From positions 13,160 to 77,159 of the forward strand of contig JADFZK010000001.1 of the NCBI GenBank assembly GCA_015232565.1: 64,000 nucleotides of DNA, written 5' to 3'. Position 1 is the stretch's first letter; each line of letters starts with the position of its first letter. A program made the position numbers and the translations under genes. The stretch is from Candidatus Omnitrophota bacterium. GTDB lineage: Bacteria; Omnitrophota; Gorgyraeia; Zapsychrales; Fredricksoniimonadaceae. This document shows, one piece after another, positions 45,378 to 63,898 of the stretch. The notes below the pieces were generated by a model. It made no database searches. It was not told the DNA's origin and saw nothing but the letters and a program-made list of their open reading frames with translations.

Positions 45378-45382
45378 GTTTA

Positions 45383-45850: not shown

Positions 45851-45863
45851 AGTTAGGGCAGGA

Positions 45864-46667: not shown

Positions 46668-46697
46668 GGATTTGAACTCAATGACGAGGGGCTTTTT

Positions 46698-47816: not shown

Positions 47817-48625
47817 TGATAAAGGTAAGGAATAATGACGATTTGTTATTGGCATATATGGGTATGGCACCGCTTGCGCTTGCTTTTGAAAGATATTTGG
47901 AGTGTCAGATATACCGGGATCTTGAGCTGGCTGATCCGGTGCTTGATATCGGTTGTGGTGACGGCTTGTTCGCGCATATTCTTTTTGATGGGCAGGTTGA
48001 TACCGGCATAGACTTGAATCCGCATGAATTGGAACGGGCGCGTGTGTTGGGCGGGTATAAAGAGCTGATTACTTGCAGTGCGGGTGCGATCCCGAAACCG
48101 GATGGATCATACCGGACGATTATTTCTAACAGCGTGCTGGAACACATACCTGATCTTTCTTCTGTGCTTAAAGAGGCGCATCGTCTTCTTGTGCCGGGTG
48201 GAAGATTTTATGTGACTGTGCCTGCTCCCGAGTTCGAGGAGTATACTATCGGGAATATTGTTCTTACCGGGATTGGGTTGCGAGGGGTGGCGGCTGGGTA
48301 CAAAGCCTTCTGTAGCCGTGTGCTTTGGCGACAGATTCACTATAAGTCGGTTGAGGGCTGGAAGGCTCTTGCGATGGCGCATGGTTTTGAAGTGCTGGAT
48401 GGATTTGCCTATGATTCTCGGCAGGTTTGTCTTTTGAATGATTTTCTGTATCCCTTTAGCATTCTGGATGTGATCAAGAAGCGGTTGTTGAACCGCTGGA
48501 CACTAATGCCGACTTTTCGACGTTTCTGGATGTATCCATTTTATCTTTTTGCAAAGAATTTCTTAAAAGGCAATGTCCGGGCAGATTCTGGAGGTTTGGT
48601 TTTTCTTTCATTAAGGAAGGGGTAG
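47816..48625 (+). CDS. Class I SAM-dependent methyltransferase
   Basis: VLDIGCGDGLF, and ISNSVLEHIPD. TAATG overlap with the upstream gene. Confidence 0.8.
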   Translation: MIKVRNNDDLLLAYMGMAPLALAFERYLECQIYRDLELADPVLDIGCGDGLFAHILFDGQVDTGIDLNPHELERARVLGGYKELITCSAGAIPKPDGSYRTIISNSVLEHIPDLSSVLKEAHRLLVPGGRFYVTVPAPEFEEYTIGNIVLTGIGLRGVAAGYKAFCSRVLWRQIHYKSVEGWKALAMAHGFEVLDGFAYDSRQVCLLNDFLYPFSILDVIKKRLLNRWTLMPTFRRFWMYPFYLFAKNFLKGNVRADSGGLVFLSLRKG

Positions 48626-48630
48626 TGCAT

Positions 48631-49356
48631 ATGAAAGTATCCATCATTCTTCCCACCTATAACGAGGCAGGCAATATTGTTGCGCTGATCCGCGAGATTG
48701 TGCTTAATATCCCCCGGGAATGGGCACACGAGATTATTGTGGTTGATGACAATAGCCCCGACGGAACGTATCAGATGGTTCGGGATGCTTTCAGCGGGGA
48801 TCCTGCTGTTGTTGCTCTTTTGCGTACCATGGATCGGGGCTTTGCACGGTCGATTCGTGCCGGGATCGATGCGGCTCAGGGAGATCAGATCATCGTTATG
48901 GATACGGATTTTACTCATGATCCTGTTGAGATCCCCCGGTTGCTTCATGTTGGCGTGGTTTATGATATCGTCAGTGCTTCGCGGTTTTGTTCTGGTGGCA
49001 ATATGCAGGATGTGCAGCATTATATAGCCAGTATGTTGTATAATTGGGTTCTTCGGATCCTGCTACGTACCCAGGTTCAGGACAATCTGGGCGGGTACTT
49101 TACGATGAGGAGAGAAAAGCTGATGCAGCTTCCGCTTAACGATATATTTTTCGGATATGGAGAATACTTCTTTAGGCTGGTACGCTTTGCTAAATGCCAG
49201 GGTATGACTATTGTCGAGGTTCCCGCACTCTACAGGACCCGTCATGCCGGCAAGAGCAAGTCTAACTTTCTAAAAATGCTTTTTACCTATGGCATGGCAG
49301 CGCTCAGGTTGCGGCGCAGTTGCGCTCTAAGAAAAGAGAAGACGAATGGCTGGTGA
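48631..49356 (+). CDS. GT2 glycosyltransferase, dolichyl/polyprenyl-phosphate mannose synthase-like
   Basis: VSIILPTYNEAGNI, VVDDNSPDGT and DTDFTHDP. GGAAGGGG ribosome-binding site. Confidence 0.85.
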   Translation: MKVSIILPTYNEAGNIVALIREIVLNIPREWAHEIIVVDDNSPDGTYQMVRDAFSGDPAVVALLRTMDRGFARSIRAGIDAAQGDQIIVMDTDFTHDPVEIPRLLHVGVVYDIVSASRFCSGGNMQDVQHYIASMLYNWVLRILLRTQVQDNLGGYFTMRREKLMQLPLNDIFFGYGEYFFRLVRFAKCQGMTIVEVPALYRTRHAGKSKSNFLKMLFTYGMAALRLRRSCALRKEKTNGW

Positions 49357-51076
49357 CATTTATTGGGGTTTTGTTGCAGTCGTTTCGGCCACTGTGGGAT
49401 TGCTTACTGTTCTGCCTGAGATCTATGCGTGGTTAAAGGCGCCCTCAAGGTGGACGCCTGTCAATTCACCACCTTATATGCTCGGTGACGACTATCATTA
49501 TTTCGCACAATTGAATGATATTCACCGGAAATGCCTTAACTTCTTCTATGGAACCCGTCTTTCTACGCGCCCGCTTACGGCGCTCTTCGGTTTTCAGTTG
49601 GCAGGATATTTCTTTAATCTGCTTCCGTATCATATTGGCTTTCTACTTGGAGACAGGCGTCTGGGTGTGTTGGTAGTTAGGGTGTGGAATCGTTCATTGC
49701 TGGGGCTTGCTACAGCAGTGTTTGCAAAGGGGTTCTTTTTGTTGATCGGCGTTACGCCAACGACAGGGTTACTTATTCTGGTTTTCTTGGTGTTTTTTAT
49801 TTTCTTTCCGGGGCCTTTTGAGCTTGGAGGGGCGGATAGTATCGTGATGCAAATGGAGAATTCTCGGCATATCTATGACCGCTCGAACGCCAATGATCTT
49901 ACCAGAGGGATGTTCTCGGAGACCACTGCGCCACTACTGTTAAGTGCCTGCGCTGTCTTGACACTTGTGATTGATGTGCGGCATGGGATGGTGGTAGGGA
50001 TCTTGGGGCTTTTTTGTCTTGCAGTGCTTTTCTTTCATTATTTTCCAGCCGCGGTGGTTTTTGCTTGGTTGTTATTTCTCATCTTTCTTGTGAAGCATTA
50101 TTTCTTGTTAGCCTTTGCCTGTGGCTTGCTGACCATAGGGCTTTCCTGTTTTTCTATGCATATGTTGTCCCGTAGCGATATTGGCAAGGAGCTTTTTGTG
50201 CAGAATGCCGGTACCGCAATATTCTCTTTTCGAAGAAGTTCGTTTATTGGGGTGGCATTTACTTTGTGCTTGGCGCTTCTTCTAGTGTTTTCTCTTCCGG
50301 TTACACCACAGACAAGCGTGCTTGTGCTTTATCTTGGATCCGTGTTTTTCCTGGCCGGGCTTTTCTTTGTGAAACATCAGGCGATCCGCTTTTGGAGCCG
50401 GGGTGCAGTGATCCCTTTTGAGGTTATGTCCACGGTAGTCCTTGCTACTATTGCGCTTCCTTTATTAACCGAAGGCTTTATCTCTGTATTCATCTTGGTG
50501 TGTTTTGGTATCCTTGTTCGTTATTATTACCGACAGGCGTTTTTCCTTTATCATGTTGGAGCCACGTTATTGGCCGACGGCATTGAGTTTGATCGTGACA
50601 TTTGTCCTCGTGACGCGGGCAGGTTTCCGGCACGCAGCCGGCTAGTTGCGACTAATTCAACGGCATTGGCGGACTGTATTTGTGTTTTCAGTGCGGATGA
50701 GACGTACTTGAGAAACTATTCGATACAGTCTGTGGGTTATCGGGGGCAGGTAAGGTTCTTTTGTGCGAATTTCAAGGTGCTGGGTATTAGTTTTGCTGAA
50801 TGTGAGAGGTGGCTGGCGATGTCTGTAGAGTATAAGGATTGGCTGTTCGCTCGGCCGTTTCAGAAGCAGACGCCATTCGCGGAGCTCTGTTATGCCCATA
50901 CGCTTCAATATATGGTCAGCAACAGGGAGTATAATCAAGCGTTGTTGAGAGATGGAATGCATGACGGGACTGGATGGACACCGAAGTACAGGGACTTTTT
51001 GCGGGAGACGTGGGGAACGGTGGATCTTTCCATGATGGGCGATGTTGTCGGGGTAGTGGTAGAGCGCCCGTATTGA
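49346..51076 (+). CDS. Polytopic membrane protein of unknown function (Wzy-type polymerase or GT-C-like candidate)
   Basis: 576 aa with more than 12 hydrophobic helices. Its start overlaps the upstream gene by 11 nt. Confidence 0.7.
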   Translation: MAGDIYWGFVAVVSATVGLLTVLPEIYAWLKAPSRWTPVNSPPYMLGDDYHYFAQLNDIHRKCLNFFYGTRLSTRPLTALFGFQLAGYFFNLLPYHIGFLLGDRRLGVLVVRVWNRSLLGLATAVFAKGFFLLIGVTPTTGLLILVFLVFFIFFPGPFELGGADSIVMQMENSRHIYDRSNANDLTRGMFSETTAPLLLSACAVLTLVIDVRHGMVVGILGLFCLAVLFFHYFPAAVVFAWLLFLIFLVKHYFLLAFACGLLTIGLSCFSMHMLSRSDIGKELFVQNAGTAIFSFRRSSFIGVAFTLCLALLLVFSLPVTPQTSVLVLYLGSVFFLAGLFFVKHQAIRFWSRGAVIPFEVMSTVVLATIALPLLTEGFISVFILVCFGILVRYYYRQAFFLYHVGATLLADGIEFDRDICPRDAGRFPARSRLVATNSTALADCICVFSADETYLRNYSIQSVGYRGQVRFFCANFKVLGISFAECERWLAMSVEYKDWLFARPFQKQTPFAELCYAHTLQYMVSNREYNQALLRDGMHDGTGWTPKYRDFLRETWGTVDLSMMGDVVGVVVERPY

Positions 51077-51128: not shown

Positions 51129-52646
51129 ATGATGAGAAAGAAGATCATTAAAGATACGTTATTTCTTAACATGGCCATGCTTTTGTGTCAGGGCATGGGA
51201 ATTGTTCAGACCGTGCTTATTATGCGGTTTCTGGATCCGTATTACTACGGGATATGGATGGCACTTAACATTGTTCTTATGTATGCTGATTATTTTCATC
51301 TCGGCGTAGGGTACGGTTTTCCTATAAGGCTAACTTATTATCAGGGGCAGGGCAAGCCTGACGAGGCGGCCAAGATCGCGGATAGTGGATACTTCTCTTG
51401 GAGTTTGTTGACGATCATATGTGCTTTGGGAGTGCTGATTTACGGGGTTAGCGCACCGGGATTGCCGGGATTTAGCAGGGTGGGGCTTGCTATCATTGCG
51501 ATTATTACTATCGCAGAACAGCAGATCTTTTTCTTCCTTCGTTGGCAGGCAGCAGCTTGTAAGGACTTTAAGATCTGCAGTGTTTTATTTGTTGCACGGG
51601 GTGTGTTTAGTTTCATTGTGCTGGTGCCTTGTTCGTTCTTTTTTAACGTCGCAGGGCTCATGGGAGCAACCATGATGGTTGCTATTGTTTTTGCATTGGT
51701 TTGGCGGGTTAAGACATCTTACCGTTTTCAGGGCCGGGTTAATTTTGTTAGTATTGTTGAAATGATAAAAGTTGGTTTTCCGACCATGCTTGTTTGTCTT
51801 GCGGGAAAATTGATCGAAACGGTTGACCGTATTCTGATAGTCTTTTTTCTTGGCTCTGTTAGTCTCGGGTGTTACGCTGTGACAGCAATTGGAGGAAATG
51901 CCTTGTATGGCTTGGTCGCACAGGCCGGGACTGCTATGGCACCTCATATTGTGGAGCACTTCGCGCTTAATAACGATTCCCCCGTATCATTAAAGAAGTT
52001 TCTTGTTGGTCCAACAATAGTGTTTGCGTATGTAATGAGTGCTCTTCTGATGGTTGTGGCGATATTGATTCCGCTACTCGTGATTACTTTATTGCCGAAA
52101 TATGTTCCGGGGATTAGCGCTTTCTATTGTTTCTTGCCAGGGTTCTTTTTTCTTGGCGTCATCCTTACAGCGAACAATATTTTGAACTATATCCTTATTT
52201 CCAAAGGCCACCAGATGTGGTTGGCATATTTTCAGGTAGTTCCAATTTTTGTTCAGATCGGGCTAGGGTTTTTGTTTATAAAGATTGGTTGGGGTATAGC
52301 TGGCGTCGCTTTAGCATCAACTTTATCATATGCGTTGTATGGAGGTGGGCTCTTATGGTGGACTAGTAGACATGTATTGCCTGATCGGCAGGAAAGAAGA
52401 CGATTTATGGGGGATGTGGTCTTGCCGTTTATTTATGTATTGCCTGTGGCGTGGTTAATAATTCTTTTCGGGCAAAAGTTTTTTCCCTATGATTTGATTC
52501 TAAGGGGCGTTGTTCAACTTCTGGCATGTGTTGTTTCGTTTGTTCCGTTTGTTTTCTTTCTTAATCTAAGAACAGGGATCTTTATTGACGCCAAAAATAT
52601 TATTGGTTCGGTTATTCGCCGATTCCAGGGATCTCCCGAGATGTAA
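51129..52646 (+). CDS. wzx: MOP-superfamily oligosaccharide flippase (Wzx-like polysaccharide biosynthesis protein)
   Basis: 505 aa with 12 or more transmembrane helices, and the N-terminal LFLNMAMLLCQGMGIVQTVLIMRFL motif typical of Wzx/PST proteins. Confidence 0.8.
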   Translation: MMRKKIIKDTLFLNMAMLLCQGMGIVQTVLIMRFLDPYYYGIWMALNIVLMYADYFHLGVGYGFPIRLTYYQGQGKPDEAAKIADSGYFSWSLLTIICALGVLIYGVSAPGLPGFSRVGLAIIAIITIAEQQIFFFLRWQAAACKDFKICSVLFVARGVFSFIVLVPCSFFFNVAGLMGATMMVAIVFALVWRVKTSYRFQGRVNFVSIVEMIKVGFPTMLVCLAGKLIETVDRILIVFFLGSVSLGCYAVTAIGGNALYGLVAQAGTAMAPHIVEHFALNNDSPVSLKKFLVGPTIVFAYVMSALLMVVAILIPLLVITLLPKYVPGISAFYCFLPGFFFLGVILTANNILNYILISKGHQMWLAYFQVVPIFVQIGLGFLFIKIGWGIAGVALASTLSYALYGGGLLWWTSRHVLPDRQERRRFMGDVVLPFIYVLPVAWLIILFGQKFFPYDLILRGVVQLLACVVSFVPFVFFLNLRTGIFIDAKNIIGSVIRRFQGSPEM

Positions 52647-52687: not shown

Positions 52688-53704
52688 ATGATGAAGACAG
52701 CCATTATAGGCGCCGGTCGCATGGGACGGCGTCATATGCAGGTGGTTCGTGAAATGGGGCTGGAGTTGGCCGGGATTTGTGATGTGAGTCAGCAGGCGCT
52801 GGCGCTGGCGGCGGCCGAGCATCAGGTTCCATCGGAAAGGCAATTCTCCGATGCTAGAGTGTTGTTTAACCGTACGCGGCCAGAATGCGTGGTGATTGCC
52901 ACGACAGCTCCGTCACATTGTGAATATACGTGTCTGGCCGCTGAGAGCGGTGCAAAATACATCTTGTGCGAGAAGCCTATGGCGGTGTCCCTTGAGGAGT
53001 GCAATCGCATGATTGCTGTTTGTGAACGCGCAGGTGCGTTGTTGGCGATAAATCATCCAATGCGGTTTATGGAGCAGTACACTGTGGTCAAAAAGATCGT
53101 GGATTCTGCTGAGTTCGGAGGATTGGCAAGTACGACAGTTATTGCAGGTAATGTGGGAATCGCTATGAATGCTAGCCACTATTTTGAAATGTTCCGTTTT
53201 ATGACCGGTGAGCCCGTTCGGGAGCTCACGGCGTGGTTTGCAAAGGCGGTTGTGCCCAATCCCCGAGGGCCTCAGTTCGAGGACAGGGCGGGAGAAGTGC
53301 GGGCGGTTACGGCTTCCGGAAAGCGGCTCTATTTTGAAGCTGGGGATGATCAGGGCCATGGCGTGCAGGTAGTTTATGCTGGAAGGCAGGGTTTGCTTTT
53401 TGTTGACGAACTTACCGGGTTTGCCAGGCTTCAGGTACGGGAAGAGGTTCATCGGACCATGCCGACTACCAGGTATGGCATGCCTTGGGTCGAGCGCGTG
53501 ATTAGTATTCAGCCGGCATCTGTAATCGGACCCACACAAGCTTTACTGGCGGCATTGTTTTCTGCGCGGGGTTATACCACTGGTGCGCAAGGCCGTGCCG
53601 TGGTGGAGGCATTGGTTGCGGCGTATGTATCGCATGAGAATGGGCATATGGCGGTAGAGGTTAACAGTAGTTTACCGCAGGGCAGGGTATTCCCCTGGGC
53701 GTGA
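52688..53704 (+). CDS. Gfo/Idh/MocA family oxidoreductase
   Basis: KTAIIGAGRMGRRH, with EKP. Confidence 0.85.
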   Translation: MMKTAIIGAGRMGRRHMQVVREMGLELAGICDVSQQALALAAAEHQVPSERQFSDARVLFNRTRPECVVIATTAPSHCEYTCLAAESGAKYILCEKPMAVSLEECNRMIAVCERAGALLAINHPMRFMEQYTVVKKIVDSAEFGGLASTTVIAGNVGIAMNASHYFEMFRFMTGEPVRELTAWFAKAVVPNPRGPQFEDRAGEVRAVTASGKRLYFEAGDDQGHGVQVVYAGRQGLLFVDELTGFARLQVREEVHRTMPTTRYGMPWVERVISIQPASVIGPTQALLAALFSARGYTTGAQGRAVVEALVAAYVSHENGHMAVEVNSSLPQGRVFPWA

Positions 53705-53715
53705 AAAGGGTATCT

Positions 53716-54672
53716 ATGGCACAGTTCAATGAGTTCAGGGTTGTCATTATTGGTGCTGGATATACAGCGCGTGAACATATTCGTGCGTTTGCGGACCTTC
53801 CGGGAGTTTGTATTGTCGGAATCCATAGTCGTACTCGCAGCAAGGCGGAGGCTTTGGCAAAGGAATTTGGCATTGCTTTGGTATGTGATTCGATCGTTGA
53901 TCTTTATGTAATGACTCGGGCTGACCTTGTTGTTGTGACGGTTTCCGAATTGTCCATGCGTGACGTCAGTACGGCCTGTTTTGAATTCCCATGGGCTGTA
54001 CTGCTTGAGAAGCCGGCGGGATATGATTGTGCGGATGCGCGCCTGATTAAGACGGCTGCGGAAAAGAAAGAGCGGAAAGTCTTTGTGGCGCTTAATCGCC
54101 GGTTTTATGGGGGCATTTGTGCGGCGAAGGCCAGCCTGAAGGAGATTGGCTCGCCGCGTTTTATTAAAGTTCAGGATCAGGAGGATATGAGTGCTGCATT
54201 GGCCCTGGGTATTCCGTTAAAGGTTGTGAAGAACTGGATGTATGCCAACTCGATCCACATGATTGATCTGTTAAGGGTGTTTGGTCGAGGCAAGATCGTT
54301 GCAGTTGAACCGGTTATCCCATGGAACGCCGGCAATCCTGGTGTGGTTATGGCCAAGATTGTATTTGATAGCGGGGATATCGGCATATACGAAGGTATTT
54401 GGGACGGCCCCGGCCCTTGGTCGGTTGTTGTCAATACGCCTCTTAAGCGCTGGGAACTTCGGCCTGTTGAGCAGGCTGGGTTTCAGAATCGGGGTGAGCG
54501 CAGGCTTCAGCCCGTGGAGCTTCATTCCTGGGACCAGGCTTTCAAACCCGGGTTTCGTCTTCAGGCTGAGCAGGTGGTGTTTGCCGTCCTTGGCCGACCT
54601 TCGGAAGCGGTCTCCCTGGCCGAGGCCTTTGGGACAATGGAATTAATTGAGGCGATTTTTGAGAAATCATGA
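53716..54672 (+). CDS. Gfo/Idh/MocA-like oxidoreductase
   Basis: FRVVIIGAGYTAREH...LLEKP. AAAGGG ribosome-binding site before the ATG at 53716. The GTG at 53701 is an alternative start. Confidence 0.8.
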   Translation: MAQFNEFRVVIIGAGYTAREHIRAFADLPGVCIVGIHSRTRSKAEALAKEFGIALVCDSIVDLYVMTRADLVVVTVSELSMRDVSTACFEFPWAVLLEKPAGYDCADARLIKTAAEKKERKVFVALNRRFYGGICAAKASLKEIGSPRFIKVQDQEDMSAALALGIPLKVVKNWMYANSIHMIDLLRVFGRGKIVAVEPVIPWNAGNPGVVMAKIVFDSGDIGIYEGIWDGPGPWSVVVNTPLKRWELRPVEQAGFQNRGERRLQPVELHSWDQAFKPGFRLQAEQVVFAVLGRPSEAVSLAEAFGTMELIEAIFEKS

Positions 54673-56744
54673 ATACTGTTGAGGTTCTTCGTCAATCGGC
54701 TCAAATGGAGGTCGTGTATGCCGAGTGTCTGACCTTGCCCTGGATATTGAGGGCCTTACCTTCGTTAATGGCAGATGGTCGATCCACCAGTTGTATTTAT
54801 TTCTTTGATGCCACCCTTGTTGCCCGATTGCTTGCAGCAGGGTTGAGTGTGTTTGGCCGTGTACGTTTTGAAAAGCTGCATTTTGAGGCTATGGATGTTC
54901 GTGATGAGGAGGGCCTTTGTATTTTTATTCGGCTTCTTTATCAGGATTTGGCGTTATTGCGCGGGATTATTCTAGAGGAACACCGCGCTATGTTTACTGC
55001 TCTTGAGAATTCAGAGAGGCTTGGGGAGTATTTGTTAAAAGCTCCGGTCTGTTCGTATGATTTTTATGGCCACAGGAAATATAGTGATCTATGGCATGTT
55101 CTAATGCTGGTGCAGGTAGCGTGCTGGCATGCCCGGAGGGAAGGTCACAGCCCACGTTCTCAGTTGGTTATTTTTACCCGGCCATTCGCTTCCGCACTGG
55201 AGGCGTATTCCTGCAAGTTTGGTGTGGACTTGCGAATGATGGGACGCTTTCAGCCTTTCTCCCCCGTTTTACAAAATATATTTCTCAGGTTTTCTAAATT
55301 TAATGTCAAATTCCTGAAAGGAATACTGAGGGACTTTTGTGTTCGTTTCTCTCGGTGTCGTGGCGTCGATGTCGTCGGTGGAGCTTCCGGGGATGAAGTG
55401 CGTATGATGGCTGAGTATTACGGCCAGCTCAATCTTGAACGGTCTGGCCTGGTTTCTGATTTGTTCTTTCTTGATGATAACGGGATCCGGGGGAAGGACG
55501 TTTGCCTGGTGTTTAATGGTAGTCAAGATCCGGTAGATGAGCAGAAATCGTCCGAAATGTGCCGGCATGGCGTGAGCGCGGTTGCTCTTACGCCTCAATC
55601 CAGCCTGGTGAGTGAGGACGTGGTTCCGGTTTTTCGCTATGTGTCTGAGACTGCGGTGAGTTATCCGGAGGGCTTGTCGCCGGAGTGGGTAGAGCACGCT
55701 GGACAATATGCACGTCAGCGGGCTTATTGGGGTGCATTCTTTCGCCGGTACAATCTTAGGATGTGGTATTCCTGGACCAAGTATGATTCCGGACATATTG
55801 CCCTGGCGGATGCGCTATCGGAGTTGGGAGGCATATCGGTAATGTATCAGCGGGCGCACGAAGCGGGATCTGCACCGCAGTTGGCTGTCGGCGCGGATTT
55901 GATCTTCGGGTTTGCTCCGAGCGGATATCAGACCGAGCTCGGAAGCGGCTCGAGGTTTCGTTATCATGTGGCGGTCGGTTATTGCGGTGACGGGCGTTTT
56001 CGGCATTTGCGTTTGCAGGCTCAAGAGGTCCGTGATCGTCTGATGCGTAATGGTGCTAGTCATATTGTCACCTATTTTGACGAAAACACGATTATTGATG
56101 GACGCTGGTTTCATGGTCATGATGTTGCCGGAAGAAATTATTCGTTCTGGCTTGAGAAGTTGCTGGCAGATCCGCAGCTGGGCTTGATATTCAAACCGAA
56201 ACGACCGGTAAATCTTCGTCAGAGGCTTGGGCCTGTGGCGGCTCTGCTGAAAAGGGCAGAGAAGACCGGTCGTTGTTTTGTGTTCGAGGGAGGTCTTTTG
56301 CAGGGGGCATTTCCACCTGCGGTCGCGGCGCTTGCGTCGGATATTTCTGTGCATGAAGCCTTGAGCGCGGGAACTGCCGGATTGGAGGCCGCTCTGGCTG
56401 GCGGAAGAACGATCCTGATGGACCTTGAAGGTTGGCCGAGGAGTCCGTTGTATCGGCTTGGAAGTGAGGTTGTTTTTAAGGACTGGCCTGCGGTCTGGAG
56501 CGCTTGCAATGATTATTTCCGGGATCCAGGATCCCGTTCCGGCTTGGGTGACTGGTCGTCAATGATCAGTGAGCTGGATCCTTTCCATGACGGCCGCGCC
56601 GCTGAGCGGATGAGTATTTATTTGAAAGACTTGCTTGAGGGCTTACGCCGTGGGGAAACTCCGGCAACGGTTATGGATATGGCCGCTGAACGTTACGGAC
56701 AGCGGTGGGGCAAGGACAAGGTCCAGCGCGGGCCGCATAAATAA
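54669..56744 (+). CDS. Large soluble protein of unknown function (691 aa); GT-B-like C-terminal half suspected
   Basis: ATGA overlap. There are no transmembrane helices. The C-terminal segment RCFVFEGGLLQGAFPPAVAALASDISVHEALSAGTAGLEAALAGGRTILMD resembles a GT-B C-domain or sugar-transferase nucleotide-binding fold. Confidence 0.65.
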   Translation: MNTVEVLRQSAQMEVVYAECLTLPWILRALPSLMADGRSTSCIYFFDATLVARLLAAGLSVFGRVRFEKLHFEAMDVRDEEGLCIFIRLLYQDLALLRGIILEEHRAMFTALENSERLGEYLLKAPVCSYDFYGHRKYSDLWHVLMLVQVACWHARREGHSPRSQLVIFTRPFASALEAYSCKFGVDLRMMGRFQPFSPVLQNIFLRFSKFNVKFLKGILRDFCVRFSRCRGVDVVGGASGDEVRMMAEYYGQLNLERSGLVSDLFFLDDNGIRGKDVCLVFNGSQDPVDEQKSSEMCRHGVSAVALTPQSSLVSEDVVPVFRYVSETAVSYPEGLSPEWVEHAGQYARQRAYWGAFFRRYNLRMWYSWTKYDSGHIALADALSELGGISVMYQRAHEAGSAPQLAVGADLIFGFAPSGYQTELGSGSRFRYHVAVGYCGDGRFRHLRLQAQEVRDRLMRNGASHIVTYFDENTIIDGRWFHGHDVAGRNYSFWLEKLLADPQLGLIFKPKRPVNLRQRLGPVAALLKRAEKTGRCFVFEGGLLQGAFPPAVAALASDISVHEALSAGTAGLEAALAGGRTILMDLEGWPRSPLYRLGSEVVFKDWPAVWSACNDYFRDPGSRSGLGDWSSMISELDPFHDGRAAERMSIYLKDLLEGLRRGETPATVMDMAAERYGQRWGKDKVQRGPHK

Positions 56745-56745
56745 T

Positions 56746-58575
56746 ATGGCACAGCTCTTTCGGATCAATGATCTGCAGGCGTTTCGGATTAAGGCGGGGA
56801 AAAGCAAGCCGCTGGTCATAGTTATTGACAGGCTTGAACAAGGCGGTCAAGGGCTTGAGCAGGGGGTGCTCGAGGGCCTCCCCGTTCCGGTTTATGCGGA
56901 CAGTGACCGGTCGTTGTTTATCAAGGATTATATCGATTGTATCGCCCGTCTTAATGGTTTGTATAAGGATCAATTTTTATGGTGGGCCACCAATCTTTCT
57001 TCCAAGAACCGGTATCTTTGTCCCCTGCCCGATCTGGTGCTGGAGTTGCAGGAGATCGATCTGGCCCTGAGAACTTTTGCTGACTGCCATATTTTGATCG
57101 TAGCCCCGTCGCTTGCGATACAAGCTTCTTTGCGTAAGTTGTTGTCGGGAAGCGGCAGAACTGTTTTTTGGCAGTGTTCGGCGATCGGCCCATTGCGGGG
57201 ATGTGTAATAAACAGCGTTCTTAAATCGGCGGGCCTCTTTTACAATGCGTTCAAGATCTTTGCGCGCAGCTTTTATGCCCGGGCGCTGTTAGGCCACCAG
57301 GCAGGGGAGTTCTTTGCCCAGCGCAGGCCTTGTTATGTGATAAAAACATTCTCATATGGTTCTTCGTGGGATAAAGCAGGCCAGTATACGGATCCTTTCT
57401 TCGGAGAGCTGGCGGGTTATTTGCGGCAAGAAGGCAAGAAGGTTCTGACCTTAAGTTATCATTGGCAGGGCTTCCGTCATTTTATTAAGCAGGTCAAGAG
57501 GCCTGGCGAAGAGTTTATCCTTCCGGTCGAGTTCTTTATTTCTTTGCAGGATATTCTCGGGGCTGTTATCCGCATTCTGTCTTTTAGGATTCCATTGCCT
57601 GGCAAGGTTGATTTCCGTGGCCTTGATATTACCGCTACGCTGGCTTATGAGCTCGCCTGTAATCTGAACGGTATCCAGCTTTTTCAATTGCTCCATTATG
57701 ACGCCGTAAGGCGCCTTTCCAAATGTGTTGCAATAGAGACGTTCTTGTTCACTTTTGAGAATAATCCCTGGGAGCGCATGTGCATGCTGGCTTGCCGCCA
57801 GTGTAGTTCAACCACTTTCTTGATCGGCTATCAGCACTCGGTGGTTCCACCGGCAGCGCTTAACATGTTCGTTAGTTCGCTCGAGCGCCTTATTGTTCCT
57901 CTGCCTGACAAGGTTCTTACCACTGGGGAGGTGTCCGCGAGTATTCTGAAGCAGTATGGTGATTATTCGGCAACAGAAATTACCCCGGCGTGCGCGTTAC
58001 GGTATGCCTATCTTGAGGGTGCCCCCGTAAAGCCCCGGGCCAGGAAGCGGCGGGTCCTGGTTGTTCTTGATGGCGTATTGGAAACAAAGGCGCTGGTTGA
58101 TTATGCCTTGAGTCAGTCTGCTCTTATGCCGGAGTGGACCTTTGTCCTAAGGTCGCATCCGGCTTTGCCTTGGGCTTTCCTGGCGGGGCAGTTTGGGTAT
58201 TCTTTGGGCAGGTATTCTTCTGTTCTGTTTTCGCAGGGTGTGTTGCGCGATGATATTGAGTCAGCGGATCTGATCCTGTACTGGCAGAGTGCGGTAGTTC
58301 TTGAAGCGTTGTTGATGGGTTGTCCGGTTGTTAATTTCTCCCCTGCTGGCATTCTTAGTTATGATCCGATTCCTGGTTGTTCAAATTTGAGGTGGAATGT
58401 TTCTTTGCAACAAGGGTTGAAGGATGTAGCTGAAGAGGTTTTTAACATTACGGAAGCTCAATACCAGGAGCAAAGTCTTCTGGCCGGTCAGTATGTTCAA
58501 CGATACTTTTATCGTGTTACCCCCGAACGTTTTAGAGAGTTCCTGAGTCGCCATTTGCGTTCAAGTTCATCTTGA
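56746..58575 (+). CDS. Large soluble protein of unknown function (about 609 aa); GT-B-like C-terminal half suspected
   Basis: Start at MAQLFRIN, immediately after the upstream stop. The C-terminal part RVLVVLDGVLETKALVDYALSQS...ADLILYWQSAVVLEALLMGCPVVNF is Rossmann-like. Confidence 0.65.
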   Translation: MAQLFRINDLQAFRIKAGKSKPLVIVIDRLEQGGQGLEQGVLEGLPVPVYADSDRSLFIKDYIDCIARLNGLYKDQFLWWATNLSSKNRYLCPLPDLVLELQEIDLALRTFADCHILIVAPSLAIQASLRKLLSGSGRTVFWQCSAIGPLRGCVINSVLKSAGLFYNAFKIFARSFYARALLGHQAGEFFAQRRPCYVIKTFSYGSSWDKAGQYTDPFFGELAGYLRQEGKKVLTLSYHWQGFRHFIKQVKRPGEEFILPVEFFISLQDILGAVIRILSFRIPLPGKVDFRGLDITATLAYELACNLNGIQLFQLLHYDAVRRLSKCVAIETFLFTFENNPWERMCMLACRQCSSTTFLIGYQHSVVPPAALNMFVSSLERLIVPLPDKVLTTGEVSASILKQYGDYSATEITPACALRYAYLEGAPVKPRARKRRVLVVLDGVLETKALVDYALSQSALMPEWTFVLRSHPALPWAFLAGQFGYSLGRYSSVLFSQGVLRDDIESADLILYWQSAVVLEALLMGCPVVNFSPAGILSYDPIPGCSNLRWNVSLQQGLKDVAEEVFNITEAQYQEQSLLAGQYVQRYFYRVTPERFREFLSRHLRSSSS

Positions 58576-58638: not shown

Positions 58639-59355
58639 GTGGATTCATTGATCTATAAGGAACAACAGGTTTGGGGACGTACCGGGAATGAGCTTTTTTT
58701 CCAGGGGACGCGAAGCCAGGTCGATCATTTATATCGTTCGGAGAAGTTTTTTTTGCCTCAACTGGTGAAGGAGTCTGCGTCTTTTCTGGACTTGGGCTGT
58801 GCCTGCGGGGATTTCAGCCAGATCGTCAGGCATTATAATCCGGAGATCCGTTATACAGGGGCGGACATTATTGACCGTTTTGTTCAGATAGCCCGGAAAA
58901 ATTATCCGCAGGATGATTTTATTGTCAGTGACGGCATTAAGCTGGATTATCCCGATGGCGCTTTCGATCTGGTGCATTCTAGCGGGATCTTGCACCTGAA
59001 TTCCCGGTATCAGGATATTGTCCGGGAAATGTACCGTGTTTCCTCCAGGCATGTGTTATGTGATTTTCGCCTGACGAACGGGCCTGCGGTTACGGGGGAG
59101 ATGGATGTTAACCTGGCCGGCCAGAGTGAACAGCAGACTTTGCCATATTATGTGGTGAATACTGACGACCACCTGGCATTTCTTAAGAACTTATCTCCGG
59201 CGCCTTTTAAGATCACTGTTAAAGGATATGCGCATCCTCCTACCAAGGCGGCGCGCATCAGCGTGGATAAGGTTATGATGGCGTTTTTCCTTATTGAAAA
59301 GGGCCGTGCCGGAATCGGGCACGAAACTGTTGTTGAAATAAACCTTAATTCCTAA
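58639..59355 (+). CDS. Class I SAM-dependent methyltransferase
   Basis: FLDLGCACGDF, DLVHSSGILHL. GTG start. Confidence 0.75.
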   Translation: MDSLIYKEQQVWGRTGNELFFQGTRSQVDHLYRSEKFFLPQLVKESASFLDLGCACGDFSQIVRHYNPEIRYTGADIIDRFVQIARKNYPQDDFIVSDGIKLDYPDGAFDLVHSSGILHLNSRYQDIVREMYRVSSRHVLCDFRLTNGPAVTGEMDVNLAGQSEQQTLPYYVVNTDDHLAFLKNLSPAPFKITVKGYAHPPTKAARISVDKVMMAFFLIEKGRAGIGHETVVEINLNS

Positions 59356-59365: not shown

Positions 59366-60451
59366 ATGATTATGATTCAGCCAAAAAGATTATTGCTCAA
59401 TATCTCACGGGCGCCGTCCAATACAGAGAATCGTCTGGGTAAGGTTATGCGCCTTGATCATAATGAGCGGACCACCCCGTTGCCGCAAGCGGTTCTTGAC
59501 GCGGTATGGAAGACAGTGTCTCCCGAGGAGGTGGTGGCTTATCCGGCTTTGGAAAGCCTGTATCGCAAACTGGCCGCCTCTCTTGGGGTGCCGCGTGAAT
59601 GTCTGCTGTTAACCTATGGGTCCGATACTGGTATCCGGATGGTCTTTGATACTTACCTCAACGAAGGCGATGAGGTTGTAATGCTTGATCCTGGTTATGG
59701 GATGTTCCCGGTTTATACGGACATGTTTGGGGGTAAGAGGGTGTTCGTTAAGTATGATGCCGATTTCAGTTTGCCTGTTACGCGGATTATTGAGAAGATC
59801 AACGACAATACCAAGTTGGTTATTCTTGCTAACCCTAATCATACCGGTACGGCAATGGCGGATGGGGACATCCTTAAGGTCATCCAGGTAGCTGCTACGC
59901 ATAATGCGTTGGTTTTGGTTGATGAGGCGTATCATTATTTTTATGAGAAAACCATGATCGGGCAACTGCCGGCGTATGACAATTTGATTATCGTCCGGAC
60001 CATGTCAAAAGCTTTCGGTATCGCGCCTTTACGGGTGGGGTATCTGGTAAGCCAGTCGGCGAATATCAATAATCTGATTAAAGTCAAGTTGACTTATGAC
60101 GTGACGACTTTGTCGGCCAAGTTTGCCGAATACCTTATCGATCATCCGTCAATAGGTCTGGAATATGTGCGTGATGTTAATGAGGGTAAAGCATATCTGG
60201 CCGATGAGTTCAAGAAGCTGGGGGCAAAGGTGTTCCCATCGGTAACGAATTTTGTTTTTGTACGTTTACCGGAAGGCAGTGATGCAGTGAAGCTGGTGCG
60301 GGCGCTGGAAGCCCGGGATATCTGGATCAAAGGACCGTTCAAAGGGGTGCCGGTTGACGGGTATATCCGTATAACGGTTGGCCCCCGGGCGCAGATGGCC
60401 ATCTTTATGGAGCATGTTAAGGAATTGATGGGGAAAAAGCATGAAGGATAA
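59366..60451 (+). CDS. Class I/II PLP-dependent aminotransferase (HisC/CobD-like)
   Basis: LANPNHTGT, VLVDEAY, and RTMSKAFGIAPLRVGY where the Lys binds PLP. Confidence 0.85.
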   Translation: MIMIQPKRLLLNISRAPSNTENRLGKVMRLDHNERTTPLPQAVLDAVWKTVSPEEVVAYPALESLYRKLAASLGVPRECLLLTYGSDTGIRMVFDTYLNEGDEVVMLDPGYGMFPVYTDMFGGKRVFVKYDADFSLPVTRIIEKINDNTKLVILANPNHTGTAMADGDILKVIQVAATHNALVLVDEAYHYFYEKTMIGQLPAYDNLIIVRTMSKAFGIAPLRVGYLVSQSANINNLIKVKLTYDVTTLSAKFAEYLIDHPSIGLEYVRDVNEGKAYLADEFKKLGAKVFPSVTNFVFVRLPEGSDAVKLVRALEARDIWIKGPFKGVPVDGYIRITVGPRAQMAIFMEHVKELMGKKHEG

Positions 60452-61202
60452 GTATAAAGGCAAGAAAGTCGTGGGAGTCATTCCGGCGCGCATGGAGTCG
60501 TCGCGTTTTTACGGTAAGCCGCTGGCCAGGATACTGGGCAAGGAAATGATCCAGTGGGTTTACGAGTATTGTATGAAATGCCGTAATTTGAAAGATGTTT
60601 ACGTGGCGACCGATCACGAAGATGTCGGCAAGTTTTGTGAGCAAAAAGGAATGCGGTGTATTATGACTGCTGCGACACACAAGAACTGCTCTGAACGTTC
60701 GGATGAGGTGTGTCGGCGGGTAGGGGCGGAATATGTGGTTGAGATCCAGGGGGATGAGCCTACCCTGCGCGCGCAGGATGTGGATGATTTTATCGACCGG
60801 GCTTTTGATTTCGAGCAGTTTGATGTCGTAACACAATACGTGCAGATCTCTGAAGAAGAAGCCCGCGATCCTCAGTCGGTCAAAATCGCGGTGGGTAATG
60901 AGGGTAAAGCGTTGTATTTCTCGCGGTGTGCTATTCCGTACAATTTCAAGAACCGTAATCCTGAATATTACAAGCAGGTGGGGTTGTATGTCTGGCCGGC
61001 CGAGGCTATCAAGCGTTTCTCGCAGACTCCTAAGGGTTATCTGGAAAGCATCGAAGATACCCATATGCTGCGTTTGACCGAATACGGTTTTGATGTGCGG
61101 CTGGTATCGACCGATATCGCAACGGTGGGGGTGGACCTTCCGCAACATATCGCCCAGGCAGAAGCATTTCTAACAAAACGCAAGGAGGCTGGCGGTGAGT
61201 AA
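60441..61202 (+). CDS. KdsB-type cytidylyltransferase (CMP-Kdo synthetase family)
   Basis: VIPARMESSRFYGKPLA, IQGDEP and GLYVWPAEAIKRF. Its start overlaps the upstream gene by 11 nt. Confidence 0.85.
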   Translation: MKDKYKGKKVVGVIPARMESSRFYGKPLARILGKEMIQWVYEYCMKCRNLKDVYVATDHEDVGKFCEQKGMRCIMTAATHKNCSERSDEVCRRVGAEYVVEIQGDEPTLRAQDVDDFIDRAFDFEQFDVVTQYVQISEEEARDPQSVKIAVGNEGKALYFSRCAIPYNFKNRNPEYYKQVGLYVWPAEAIKRFSQTPKGYLESIEDTHMLRLTEYGFDVRLVSTDIATVGVDLPQHIAQAEAFLTKRKEAGGE

Positions 61203-62271
61203 GGAGTTGAGGCTTGGGATCATCGGCTGCGGACGGGTGGCTTTTCATCATGCCGAGATGCTTAAAGGTTTGGATGGTATCAAGCTGGTTGCCATCTGCG
61301 ATCTGATCGAGGAGAAAGCTCGGAAGTTATCCGAGAAGTCCGGCGCTAAAGTTTACATTAATTATCGTGAAATGCTGGCACGCGAGGAGCTTGATCTGGT
61401 TACGCTGGCTACTCCTACAGGTGCTCATTATGAGCATGTAAAAGATATTCTAGCTCATTGCGCAGTGAATGTTTTGCTCGAGAAACCAATGGTTTTGCGC
61501 GTGGCCCAGGGCCTGGAGCTTAATGCCCTGGCGGCAAAGAAGGGCGTGCGGATCTTCCCGGTCTATCAGAACCGGTTCAATAAAGCGGTCCAGCGGGTAA
61601 AATCAGCGATGGTTAGTGGCGAGTTGGGTGATGTGGTGTTGGGCACGGTGCGGTTGCGTTGGTGCCGGCCTCAACGTTATTATGATCTGGCGGCCTGGCG
61701 GGGCACTTACTCCATGGACGGCGGCGCGTATGTGAATCAGGGGATCCATTATATTGATATTCTGCGTTACCTGGCCGGTGAGGTTGAGGAAGTCAATTCC
61801 TGCCTGGCACAGCTGGGGGCCAAGCTCGAGGCGGAAGACACCGGCGTGAGCCTGCTTAAGTTCCGTAGCGGCGGACTGGGCCAGCTGGAGATAACCATGG
61901 CGGCCCGGCCTGATGATTTTGAGGCGTCTGTTTCTATCGTCGGTAGTAAAGGGCTGGCGGTCCTGGGTGGAATTTGTGCTAACAAGCTGGAAACATTTTC
62001 ACCGAGTCCGGGTGAGCAGGCGATTTACAGTGAAGAGGTTGGCATGGCGTATGGCTTAAGCCATCGTCAGGTCTATAGCAAACTGATCACAGCGATCAAT
62101 GAAAAACAGCCATCGCCGGTGGACTTTAATGATGGGCTTAATACGATCCGGTTATTGCATGCTTTATATCGTAGCAATGAAGACCGCCGCTGGGTGCGGC
62201 TCGATGAAGAAGTAGAGTCGAAACGCCTGGGTGAGCGAAACGATAAATTGCTGGCGGAATATTTGATATGA
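61195..62271 (+). CDS. Gfo/Idh/MocA family oxidoreductase (WbpB-like candidate)
   Basis: LRLGIIGCGRVAFHH...LLEKP. GTG start with an AGGAGG ribosome-binding site. Confidence 0.85.
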   Translation: MSKELRLGIIGCGRVAFHHAEMLKGLDGIKLVAICDLIEEKARKLSEKSGAKVYINYREMLAREELDLVTLATPTGAHYEHVKDILAHCAVNVLLEKPMVLRVAQGLELNALAAKKGVRIFPVYQNRFNKAVQRVKSAMVSGELGDVVLGTVRLRWCRPQRYYDLAAWRGTYSMDGGAYVNQGIHYIDILRYLAGEVEEVNSCLAQLGAKLEAEDTGVSLLKFRSGGLGQLEITMAARPDDFEASVSIVGSKGLAVLGGICANKLETFSPSPGEQAIYSEEVGMAYGLSHRQVYSKLITAINEKQPSPVDFNDGLNTIRLLHALYRSNEDRRWVRLDEEVESKRLGERNDKLLAEYLI

Positions 62272-63344
62272 AAAAACCGTTGCGGGTTGGTATTGCCGGG
62301 TTTGGTGTGGTAGGCAAGGTTCGCCGGAAGTTTATCGACCAGCATCCGCGTATGCTGGTGACGGCGGTTTGCGATCAGTCTTTTGCCAAAACAGGCGGAA
62401 AACTCGAGGGGCTTTCCTGTTTCAGCAGTTACAAGCAGTTGCTGGCAGAACCGCTGGATGTGCTTTTTGTGTGTTTGCCGAATTATCTGGCGCCGGAAGT
62501 TACTATTGCCGGTTTGGAGAAGGGCTTGCACGTTTTTTGCGAGAAACCACCGGGAAAGAGTGTGGAAGATATTCTGGCGGTGATCCAGTGTGAACGGAAA
62601 CATGCGAAACAGAAACTCATGTATGGTTTTAATCATCGTTACCATGAGTCGGTGCGTAAGGCCATGGACATTATCCGTAGCGGTAGTTTGGGCAAGGTTA
62701 TTAATTTGCGTGGGGTGTATGGCAAGTCCAAGATCGTCAGTTTTGATTCGGACTGGCGTACCAAACGGGCTTTGGCGGGCGGCGGCATCTTTCTCGACCA
62801 GGGGATCCACATGGTCGACCTGATGCGCTTGTTTGCCGGCGAATTCACGGAAGTGCACAGCTATATTTCCAACGATTTCTGGAAACATGACGTGGAAGAC
62901 AATGCTTATGCTTTAATGCGTACCGCCGATGGTGTTGTGGCCCAGTTGCATTCCTCGGCGACCCAGTGGAGGCATTCGTTCAATCTTTCCATTGCGCTGA
63001 CCAAGGGCTCGCTGATCCTCTCCGGGATCCTGTCCAATTCGAAGTCTTACGGAGCCGAGACGATTACCATAGTCCGTGCCAGCGCGAATGACGGCGGCGA
63101 TCCTTTCGAGGAGATGATCCGTTATAACGAGGACAATTCCTGGCGCGATGAAGTGTTTGATTTCGCTAGTGCGGTTATCGGGGATAAGAAAGTGACCGGT
63201 GGCACCAGCCTGGAGGCGTTAAAAACGATGAAGACGGTTTATCGTATTTATTACGCGGATCTCAAGTGGCGCAAAAAATATAATATTCCTGATCCTGATC
63301 GGAAAGTGTTTTCTAGGGGTGCCCCTAAGGCAGGTGCGACTTGA
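62268..63344 (+). CDS. Gfo/Idh/MocA family oxidoreductase
   Basis: [16 protein letters not shown], with CEKP. ATGA overlap. Confidence 0.85.
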
Positions 63345-63898
63345 GGATATTGATTTATCTTTTGAGAGATATCAGGTATCGCCTATGGTGTTTGGGGGCT
63401 AGGATACAATGCGCGCATCAATTTGATTTTTATCCGCCACCAGGCACGTTGATCCGTCATCCCGAGAATATAACAATCGGGAAGCATTTCGCTTTGGCTG
63501 ATTTTTGTCAGTTGATATGTCAGGATCCTGAGCGCGGTAGCCGGTTAGTGATTGGTGATCATGTGTCGATTAACAGCAATGTACTTATTATTGCTGATGG
63601 CGGTGGAAGGATCACGATCGGTGATAATGTGCTTATTGGTCCATTGACTGTGTTGAGAGCGGCGAATCATTGTATTGCTTCGGCGGACCAATTGATCAGG
63701 GAGCAGGGGCATGAGCCGGGTGTGATTACAATTGAGAATGATGTGTGGTTAGGCGCGGGTGTGACTGTGGTCCCTGGTGTTACTATTGGACGCTCTGCTG
63801 TAATAGGTGCGGGTAGCGTAGTAACGCGAGATGTTCCTCCTTATGCGATTGCGGTGGGAGTTCCAGCTCGCGTGATAAAGATGAGAAAAGTTGTTTAG
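63341..63898 (+). CDS. Left-handed beta-helix (hexapeptide-repeat) acetyltransferase (WbpD/maltose O-acetyltransferase-like)
   Basis: Hexapeptide repeats [50 protein letters not shown] and [14 protein letters not shown]. The start is uncertain (TTG 63341). Confidence 0.75.

Follow-up and report, generated by a model that had tools for sequence, protein, structure and literature searches.

Two adjacent GT-B-fold proteins of an Omnitrophota surface-polysaccharide locus as candidate transferases for CMP-activated acidic sugars

The gene pair and its predicted fold

The stretch of DNA analyzed here (64,000 nucleotides of contig JADFZK010000001.1 from a Candidatus Omnitrophota bacterium, in the following called the window) contains, from about 29.7 kb to its end, one surface-polysaccharide locus that is encoded on a single strand. 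Within this locus two neighbouring open reading frames, ORF1 and ORF2, were studied. On balance, it is probable that their products are distantly related cytoplasmic enzymes of the GT-B fold, each of which transfers one of the two acidic sugars that the locus activates with cytidine monophosphate (CMP). Both ORFs are real, conserved genes. The ATG of ORF1 overlaps the stop codon of the Gfo/Idh/MocA oxidoreductase gene just upstream (53701-54672). For ORF2, the mechanical ORF list gave as the longest reading frame a version of 646 amino acids (aa) that starts with TTG and overlaps ORF1 (56635-58575). The ATG at 56746, which lies one base past the stop codon of ORF1, was preferred because the homologues align from this residue; the product then comprises 609 aa. 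Identical proteins are on record as hypothetical proteins of a Candidatus Omnitrophica metagenome-assembled genome (MAG; HQL20_00305 and HQL20_00310). Neither protein has a Pfam match at E ≤ 1, and tblastn revealed no match to either one among the plasmids of PLSDB. A transmembrane helix was predicted in neither product, and a membrane-protein reading was rejected since, in addition, the single hydrophobic stretch of ORF2 (residues 257-275) lies inside the confidently folded core. The original prediction, which had described two soluble proteins of 691 and about 609 aa encoded back to back between Wzx/Gfo genes and a KdsB-type cytidylyltransferase gene, agrees with the coordinates, the start analysis and the flanking genes compiled in Table 1.

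Table 1. Coordinates of the features discussed in the text (positions refer to the window unless a homologous locus is named)
Feature	Position	Strand	Remarks
ORF1	54669-56744	+	691 aa, soluble; predicted GT-B fold with N-terminal accessory domain; candidate transferase for a legionaminic-acid derivative
ORF1 K509-P510-K511-R512-P513	56193-56207	+	K509 and K511 invariant in 67 diverse members; proposed phosphate-binding site
ORF2	56746-58575	+	609 aa, soluble; predicted GT-B fold with N-terminal accessory domain; candidate transferase for a KdsB-activated sugar acid
ORF2 R469-S-H471-P472	58150-58161	+	His-Pro just past strand 2 of the C-terminal Rossmann lobe
Two Gfo/Idh/MocA oxidoreductases	52688-54672	+	directly upstream of ORF1; the second overlaps the ORF1 start
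Methyltransferase	58639-59355	+	between ORF2 and the KdsB-type gene
HisC-like class I/II aminotransferase	59366-60451	+	between the methyltransferase and the KdsB-type gene
KdsB-type CMP-sugar-acid synthetase	60441-61202	+	PF02348 5.9e-43; NF003952 238 bits (cutoff 193); NF009905 243 bits (cutoff 255)
Two more Gfo/Idh/MocA oxidoreductases and hexapeptide acyltransferase	61195-63898	+	downstream of the KdsB-type gene
Legionaminic-acid pathway	29676-44038	+	presumed donor supply for ORF1; LegB TIGR04180 469 bits; LegC TIGR04181 515 bits; NeuB TIGR03569 462 bits
NeuC/LegG	37641-38831	+	TIGR03568, 448 bits
LegF/PseF-like cytidylyltransferase (CMP-synthetase)	39799-40509	+	legionaminic-acid pathway
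GT2 glycosyltransferase	48625-49356	+	assembly machinery
Polytopic membrane protein, 576 aa, Wzy-like	49346-51076	+	many hydrophobic segments; no Pfam/NCBIfam match; next to Wzx
Wzx-like flippase	51129-52646	+	assembly machinery
ORF2-linked cassette	L050 12142-20325		also in L049, L060, L063, L066, L069, L075, L078, L083, L086, L095, L100, L122, L124

AlphaFold2 was run on the family alignments, which comprised 18 sequences for ORF1 and 64 for ORF2. The ORF1 model reached a mean predicted local distance difference test score (pLDDT) of 82 and a predicted template-modelling score (pTM) of 0.81, the ORF2 model values of 94 and 0.92, respectively. In Foldseek searches against the PDB, both models matched GT-B proteins across about 420-460 columns with target TM-scores of 0.5-0.6. 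Matches of ORF2 were BshA, kitacinnamycin glycosyltransferase, GtfA, HepE, NeuC, WaaA and the Cps3 multienzyme 8qoy (E-values down to 4.8e-10), those of ORF1 were SPY, NeuC, HepE, MnaA, MurG, TagF, TarL and the polysialyltransferase 5wcn with bound cytidine diphosphate (CDP; E-values down to 5.9e-7). According to the models, an additional α/β domain at the N-terminus precedes the GT-B fold in both proteins. The original prediction had placed GT-B-like structures in the C-terminal halves; the fold held, but the term "half" understates its extent since both Rossmann lobes are present, with the accessory domain in front of them. No fold of another kind came up, the matches being GT-B glycosyltransferases and the structurally related 2-epimerases of uridine diphosphate N-acetylglucosamine (UDP-GlcNAc).

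Domain boundaries and the placement of residues were read from secondary-structure strings and alignments. The accessory domain comprises residues ~1-146 in ORF2 and ~1-195 in ORF1. It is followed by a long, basic amphipathic helix of variable sequence (residues 160-177 and 207-224, respectively), the two GT-B lobes and a helical tail. Conserved positions cluster in the GT-B lobes: in the ORF1 family, conservation of at least 90% is reached by 24.5% of the columns of the C-lobe, but by 1.5% of those of the accessory domain. Such a pattern would fit a nucleotide-binding site that is kept constant while its surroundings vary more.

Sequence relatives and conserved motifs

For ORF2, a word-indexed search yielded 109 homologues. 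The protein matched the model TIGR04326 (O_ant_LIC13510) with an E-value of 8.4e-19 and 67.3 bits (cutoff 250), residues 311-550 being colinear with positions 315-563 of this profile, whose length (602 positions) is nearly that of ORF2. A match to the BFO_1060 model NF046086 (E 0.0027, 16.9 bits, cutoff 200) covered residues 461-535 and included the His-Pro motif (HP). Among 64 members of the ORF2 family, all matched TIGR04326 (best E 5.3e-35), 50 TIGR04396 and 36 BFO_1060 (best E 1.6e-10). The Pfam scan of the same relatives gave DUF6716, "putative glycosyltransferase", in 5/64 (1e-7), Capsule_synth weakly in 4/64 (best E 0.0025) and Epimerase_2 (PF02350) in one at E 0.2. H471-P472 is conserved in every one of the 64 sequences. 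The best PDB sequence match of the family profile was KpsC (6mgb), which is not significant (E 0.2), even though the HP motifs were aligned by HMMER. As 67 bits stand against a cutoff of 250, ORF2 is placed by sequence in a sister clade, as a divergent relative of TIGR04326, and on profile similarity its family is remotely homologous to the BFO_1060 family of transferases for pseudaminic (Pse) and legionaminic (Leg) acids.

The ORF1 family is considerable in size: an exhaustive search yielded 2010 representative clusters with a limit of E ≤ 1e-3, of which 929 reached E ≤ 1e-30. Its members share 30-47% identity across phyla. The word-indexed search found 18 homologues, and a profile of 67 sequences recovered the same 18 and no names. 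No NCBIfam model matched ORF1, those of TIGR04326 and BFO_1060 included, and nothing meaningful was detected when ORF1-family profiles were compared to PDB sequences. Three weak DUF6716 matches were all that a Pfam scan of 67 diverse relatives revealed; Epimerase_2 and Capsule_synth were each found in 0/67. Alignment of the two families by hhalign gave an E-value of 5.3e-4 and a probability of 31% over 416 colinear columns, in agreement with weak colinear cross-matches in hmmsearch. The alignment pairs SDLFF with DPFFG, YQR with YQH and TAGLEAALAG with TVALEALMMG. Common to both proteins are thus the motifs DxFF, YQ(R/H) and T-x-x-LEA-L as well as a basic pair past strand 2 of the C-lobe. At the latter site, K509-P510-K511-R512-P513 of ORF1 is set against R469 and H471-P472 of ORF2, with K511-R512 at the His-Pro position. 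Because the invariant K509-P-K511 is paired with R469-x-H471, ORF1 looks, in the alignment, like a distant paralogue of ORF2 with Lys in place of the motif His.

Among the known enzymes to which the pair can be compared are those of the BFO_1060 family. Tanf_01245 and TFUB4_00887 of Tannerella forsythia are required to add the terminal Pse or Leg derivative to the O-glycan and carry the sialyltransferase HP motif (PMC5420450). Similar to the ORF2 family, to which they are remotely homologous, they are of the GT-B/TagB type, have the HP in a conserved C-terminal domain and are encoded beside genes for the biosynthesis of CMP-activated nonulosonic acids (NulO). Unlike ORF2, they comprise about 445 aa and lack the N-terminal accessory domain of ~190 aa, and the conserved neighbours of ORF2 belong to a KdsB-type pathway and not to the Pse/Leg genes. 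Moreover, ORF2 remains far below the cutoff of this family and ORF1 does not match it. The "surface carbohydrate biosynthesis proteins" TIGR04326 and TIGR04396 resemble ORF2 in length and by their colinear match, and genes annotated as being of this type have been seen beside neuABC genes (PMC6679464). However, ORF2 scores below the cutoff, ORF1 is not detected, and the families themselves are without demonstrated function; a literature search found no relevant paper on TIGR04326, LIC13510, TIGR04396 or DUF6716.

With the sialyltransferases of GT38, GT52 and GT80, the two proteins share the GT-B fold and the presumed donor type, a CMP-activated 2-keto-3-deoxy acid, besides the His-Pro (ORF2) and the fold match to 5wcn (ORF1). 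They differ in that there is no sequence match and no D/E-D/E-G motif, that ORF1 has Lys-Pro-Lys for His-Pro and that an N-terminal domain is added. KpsC/KpsS (GT107), WbbB (GT99), KpsS1 (GT118) and KrkA (GT140) use CMP-activated 3-deoxy-manno-octulosonic acid (Kdo) or CMP-Pse and have GT-B-derived folds, and it is to this group that the weak KpsC and Capsule_synth matches of the ORF2 family mentioned above belong. These retaining ulosonic-acid transferases, however, depend on a nucleophilic Asp that is strictly conserved within a QxxxD motif (PMC12887879), a motif that is invariant in neither family, and the N-terminal lobe of the known enzymes is reduced while ORF1 and ORF2 match full GT-B proteins. 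ORF1 and ORF2 themselves have no match to Capsule_synth (PF05159) at E ≤ 1. The Maf/DUF115 proteins, proposed Pse/Leg transferases encoded near NulO genes, belong to a different fold family, and PF01973 matched neither ORF1 and ORF2 nor any of 131 relatives scanned. Membership in the families to which the original prediction had pointed (Maf/DUF115, KpsC/KpsS, GT52, GT38) was hence not borne out: DUF115, GT52 and GT38 gave no match, and Capsule_synth only the weak ones in 4/64. ORF1 and ORF2 are not demonstrable members of GT38, GT52, GT80, GT99, GT107, GT118, GT140, Maf, TIGR04326 proper or BFO_1060; from the thresholds and motifs tested, only the GT-B fold (both) and the HP motif (ORF2) were found. 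By analogy, they probably work like the bacterial GT-B sialyltransferases and the NulO transferases of Tannerella.

The structural likeness of ORF1 to TagF and TarL (E 5e-5 to 1.5e-3) raises the question of whether the proteins are TagF/TagB-like phosphotransferases that move an alditol phosphate or sugar phosphate from a CDP-linked donor and thereby form phosphodiester links. The basic residue pair past strand 2 of the C-lobe would suit such a reaction, and relatives of BFO_1060 are assigned a TagB-type domain by CDD (PMC5420450). On the other hand, the likeness to TagF-type folds is confined to ORF1. Glyphos_transf (PF04464) matched neither protein and was found in 0/131 family members scanned, no synthase for CDP-glycerol or CDP-ribitol was annotated among the neighbours scanned, and the conserved cytidylyltransferases are of the CTP_transf_3 type (KdsB/NeuA/LegF), which make CMP-sugar acids. 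Since a Glyphos_transf signal is missing and no CDP-alditol synthase was annotated in the neighbourhood scanned, this role is highly improbable.

Genomic context of the two families

Homologues of ORF1 were located in one genome per GTDB species, and proteins of the window were placed in these loci by tblastn (handles such as L051 designate single loci). All 48 loci stem from MAGs of uncultured organisms (labelled Omnitrophota, Acidobacteriota, Nitrospiraceae, Elusimicrobiota and others). The order PtmE-LegB-LegC-ORF1 recurs, often after NeuB-NeuC-HisF-HisH-amidotransferase. In the 38 loci with at least 3 kb of upstream sequence, LegC lies directly upstream of ORF1 in 16, LegB/LegC (≥35% identity) occur somewhere in 28 and any Leg gene in 30. 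The Leg operons with ORF1 that were annotated by Pfam already hold NeuC and a PglD/LegH-like acetyltransferase, therefore the known Leg pathway is complete without ORF1. L135 contains ORF1, LegF and two tailoring genes, followed by GT2, Wzy, GT4, WecG-type and initiating transferases. An ORF2-like gene adjoins ORF1 in 15 of 39 loci and is not found downstream of it in the other 24.

Two loci deserve mention. An Omnitrophota MAG (L017) has two ORF1 paralogues in one Leg locus, one after LegC and the other after the amidotransferase genes (3798-5795 and 10001-12004). In L052, a genome with the ORF1-ORF2 pair, a Maf-like gene (MptE-like, PF01973) and a gene for a B12-binding radical SAM protein lie upstream of LegF and PtmA (1077-3695); this MptE-like gene is a possible second NulO transferase of that genome.

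For ORF2, metagenomes were scanned, which gave 80 loci; the cassette counts refer to the 27 with at least 9 kb downstream. A strictly ordered cassette follows the ORF2 homologues: Gfo, a protein of ~335 aa without assigned function, a GmhA-like SIS isomerase, an FSA/TalC-like aldolase, an HpcH/HpaI (GarL-like) pyruvate aldolase, a HAD phosphatase, two short-chain dehydrogenases/reductases (SDR), a KdsB-like cytidylyltransferase and a 2-hydroxyacid dehydrogenase. The KdsB-like enzyme reaches 269 bits against NF009905, which is above the cutoff, and is present in 19/27 loci, the other cassette genes in 13-14 each, the 2-hydroxyacid dehydrogenase in 10 and a downstream LegC in none. Directly after the ORF2 homologue, Gfo is the most frequent gene (21/59 loci). 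In one relative of ORF2, P0112, the protein is joined to a HAD domain, and the HAD family is represented in the cassette as well. For the protein of the second position (326-335 aa), no PDB relative was detected by sequence. The cassette was also found behind an ORF2 homologue in the genome of Kiloniella antarctica (L049) and in a MAG of Halopseudomonas aestusnigri, both without ORF1. The cassette resembles a pathway, not described so far, that leads to a CMP-activated ulosonic acid without a KdsA- or NeuB-type synthase; no paper on it, or on an HpcH/HpaI aldolase combined with KdsB, was found in the literature.

ORF1 precedes ORF2 in 8 of 37 ORF2 loci. The pair is therefore recurrent but not obligatory, and an obligate heterodimer was rejected since 29/37 ORF2 loci have no ORF1 upstream and 24/39 ORF1 loci no ORF2-like gene downstream. 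In the sublineage of the window, the KdsB-type gene lies nearer to ORF2 and is joined by the HisC-like aminotransferase and methyltransferases, an arrangement that is syntenic in L051, L052, L054 and L056 and probably serves to tailor the KdsB substrate. KdsB-type orthologues with 65-82% identity take the same position relative to ORF2 in L003, L005, L051, L054, L056 and L059. In the nearest relative (L051), an orthologue of the upstream oxidoreductase GfoB (67% identity) precedes ORF1, and the region continues downstream with SIS, SDR, a dehydroquinate (DHQ)-synthase-like protein and a 2-hydroxyacid dehydrogenase; the DHQ-synthase-like gene (18988-20004) lies near the HisC-like/KdsB-type pair. 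The HisC-like gene in front of the KdsB-type gene (59366-61202 of the window) recalls the Shewanella Kdo8N pathway, in which the aminotransferase KdnA and the oxidase KdnB adjoin kdsB.

Taken across genomes, ORF1 tracks legionaminic-acid genes and ORF2 tracks the KdsB-type pathway, which refines the original prediction. The counterargument that it had named, homologues lacking nucleotide-sugar genes in their vicinity, did not apply, such genes adjoining in nearly every informative locus. It is conceivable that both proteins are CMP-sugar-acid transferases but that their donors are swapped or shared, so that, for example, ORF2 adds the Leg derivative and ORF1 the KdsB product. The only experimentally anchored relatives of ORF2 transfer Pse or Leg, ORF1 of the window is not beside Leg genes, and NeuB-like genes occur in some ORF2 loci (L066, L078, L095, L110, L124). 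However, adjacency to LegB/LegC goes with ORF1 and not with ORF2, and all ORF2-selected loci with a LegC match (L056, L058, L075, L086) also hold ORF1. As, in addition, the KdsB cassette accompanies ORF2 even where ORF1 is missing, an exchange of donors appears very unlikely.

The surrounding polysaccharide locus of the window

The Leg pathway of the window is complete and encodes LegB, LegC, a PtmE-like CBS-nucleotidyltransferase, a methyltransferase, a PHP-domain protein, an ATP-grasp protein, an epimerase, NeuB/LegI, NeuC/LegG, Gfo, the LegF/PseF-like CMP-synthetase, PtmA, HisF, HisH and an N-acetyl sugar amidotransferase, which matches the PDB entry 8wex at E 7.6e-140. Because HisF/HisH and the amidotransferase are present, the Leg derivative is probably of the acetamidino form. 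The stretch from PtmE to NeuB is interrupted by the methyltransferase, PHP-domain, ATP-grasp and extra epimerase genes, and this insertion suggests a derivative with an unusual N-acyl group or some other modification. Together with the KdsB-type enzyme, whose remaining linked genes would lie beyond the end of the window at 64000, the LegF-like enzyme indicates that the locus makes two CMP-activated acids. These two CMP-synthetases are matched by exactly two candidate transferases: profile hidden Markov models of both families found no further copy of either in the window, and no Maf-like, GT52-like or Capsule_synth-like gene was detected among the window proteins scanned.

Between the Leg pathway and ORF1 lie the genes of the assembly machinery. 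The Wzy-like membrane protein is probably a divergent Wzy-type polymerase or ligase. The presence of the GT2, Wzy-like and Wzx-like genes argues for a lipid-linked repeat unit as the acceptor. They also bear on the question of whether both proteins are polymerases which, like polysialyltransferases, KpsC or TagF-like capsule polymerases, assemble the two acidic sugars into a homopolymer or an alternating polymer. The folds do match the polysialyltransferase 5wcn, TagF 3l7l, TarL 8va1 and the Cps3 multienzyme 8qoy, and the large accessory domains recall capsule polymerases. Furthermore, the sequence identity kept by the ORF1 family across phyla would fit a conserved acceptor, and ORF1 has an ORF2-like gene as its neighbour in the 15 of 39 loci given above. 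By contrast, the window and L135 hold Wzx, Wzy-type, initiating transferase, GT2 and GT4 genes as is typical for a heteropolymer repeat unit, no genes for export by an ABC transporter were seen among the genes adjoining either ORF, and most loci of each family lack the other member of the pair at the adjoining position. Due to the Wzx and Wzy-type context, single additions are favoured, and a polymerase function is considered quite unlikely.

Several features of the window stand apart from the gene pair. A sugar C-methyltransferase (Methyltransf_13/14), a NUDIX hydrolase, a formyltransferase and a DegT aminotransferase are encoded in a row at 44145-47816, probably as the pathway for a C-methylated, N-formylated amino sugar. 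At 27486-29648, a YhcG/DUF1016 PDDEXK nuclease and a papain-family cysteine protease are located between two blocks of polysaccharide genes and may indicate where two modules meet or where an element was inserted. Four large ORFs (6849-10628, 15634-17928, 19579-21120 and 23164-24891, encoding 1259, 764, 513 and 575 aa) lie within or beside the polysaccharide region and match no Pfam family with a limit of E ≤ 1e-4. Amid glycan genes at 22008-25824, a radical SAM/SPASM protein and a methylenetetrahydrofolate reductase are encoded; radical SAM genes recur near ORF1/ORF2 homologues in L052, L134 and L135. Nearly all long ORFs of the window are on the plus strand, and GC skew (1-64000) is positive in every 2-kb bin but one (6001-8000), so that the cumulative skew rises with one small dip. 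The window lies on one replication arm, with co-oriented genes.

Proposed function and its meaning

If the two proteins are transferases, ORF1 would add the acetamidino-type derivative of legionaminic acid that is activated by the LegF-like enzyme, and the sugar added by ORF2 would be the Kdo-like acid that the KdsB-type enzyme activates. The C-lobe would bind the CMP part of the donor, with R469/H471 of ORF2 or K509/K511 of ORF1 contacting the phosphate, and a conserved acidic residue of the N-lobe (D216, E338 or E343 in ORF2, D410 or D441 in ORF1) might act as the base. The variable basic amphipathic helix could dock the enzymes on the inner face of the membrane, where the sugar would be added to the repeat unit linked to undecaprenyl diphosphate before this unit is flipped by Wzx. 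That the pair comprises the best candidates of the locus for attaching the CMP-activated sugar, as originally proposed, is supported by the fold, the loci, the homology to BFO_1060 in 36/64 family members and the invariant His-Pro, from which we infer the transfer.

A number of findings weigh against this assignment. ORF1 has no significant match to any curated glycosyltransferase model and no His-Pro motif, and its link to ORF2 is weak, as the hhalign probability indicates. A [DE][DE]G motif is not discernible, since neither alignment has a run of three such columns above 50%; ORF2 has E338-N-N-P-W-E343 instead, and ORF1 D471-E472-N. Qxxx[DE] columns do not exist in the ORF2 family, and the QxxxD-like motif of the ORF1 family is not invariant (Q394 conserved to 96%, E398 acidic in 84%). 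The HpcH, TAL and HAD genes of the common cassette are missing in the sublineage of the window, at least in L051. In the window, ORF1 adjoins ORF2 and is separated from LegC by about 23 kb, so that the assignment of one donor to each protein rests on other genomes. Finally, a biosynthetic or tailoring enzyme might just as well occupy the tight, conserved place of ORF1 behind LegC, and UDP-GlcNAc 2-epimerases and NeuC rank in Foldseek as high as true glycosyltransferases; the fold alone therefore cannot separate a transferase from a 2-epimerase of GT-B fold.

The latter points lead to the main alternative, that one or both proteins, above all ORF1, are biosynthetic or tailoring enzymes acting on a nucleotide-sugar intermediate, such as a NeuC/PseG-like hydrolase or an epimerase. 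NeuC and the epimerases are among the top structural matches of both models, with target TM-scores of 0.55-0.61, ORF1 follows LegC across phyla, and ORF2 heads a strictly ordered biosynthetic cassette. The failure of ORF1 to match any glycosyltransferase model would fit this explanation as well. However, with NeuC/LegG (also encoded in the window) and the PglD/LegH-like acetyltransferase, the operons already provide what the known Leg route needs. The significant matches of the ORF2 family are to transferase families (BFO_1060, DUF6716, Capsule_synth), against a single Epimerase_2 match, and the invariant His-Pro is characteristic of transferases that use CMP-sugars or CDP-alcohols (PMC5420450). 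A biosynthetic role is regarded as unlikely.

The preferred reading, transfer of one acidic sugar by each protein, bears on a field in which few transferases are available. Not many are known that act on legionaminic acid, pseudaminic acid or other ulosonic acids besides the sialic ones, and they are difficult to detect through homology (PMC5420450). Single enzymes continue to give rise to new families in CAZy (GT99, GT107, GT118, GT140; PMC12887879). It is possible, though rather doubtful, that ORF1 and ORF2 found two new families of glycosyltransferases for bacterial acidic sugars. ORF1 would then be a widespread environmental Leg transferase, in which a Lys-Pro-Lys phosphate clamp replaces the canonical His-Pro, and ORF2 the transferase for an undescribed CMP-ulosonic acid that is made by the cassette of about ten genes bypassing synthases of the KdsA/NeuB type. 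The ORF1 family, large, without a Pfam or NCBIfam model and tightly tied to Leg operons in MAGs of several phyla, is a concrete candidate for the missing Leg transferase and of potential use in chemoenzymatic glycan synthesis. Through ORF2, the unnamed "surface carbohydrate biosynthesis" proteins of the TIGR04326 type are connected with a defined donor pathway, and a conserved cassette comes to light that may make a CMP-activated sugar acid not known so far. This cassette is relevant to the unassigned CMP-ulosonic acids which have been reported by mass spectrometry in environmental bacteria (bioRxiv 10.64898/2026.04.20.719630). If the transferase activity proves true, ORF1 and ORF2 would likely be the founders of one or two new glycosyltransferase families.

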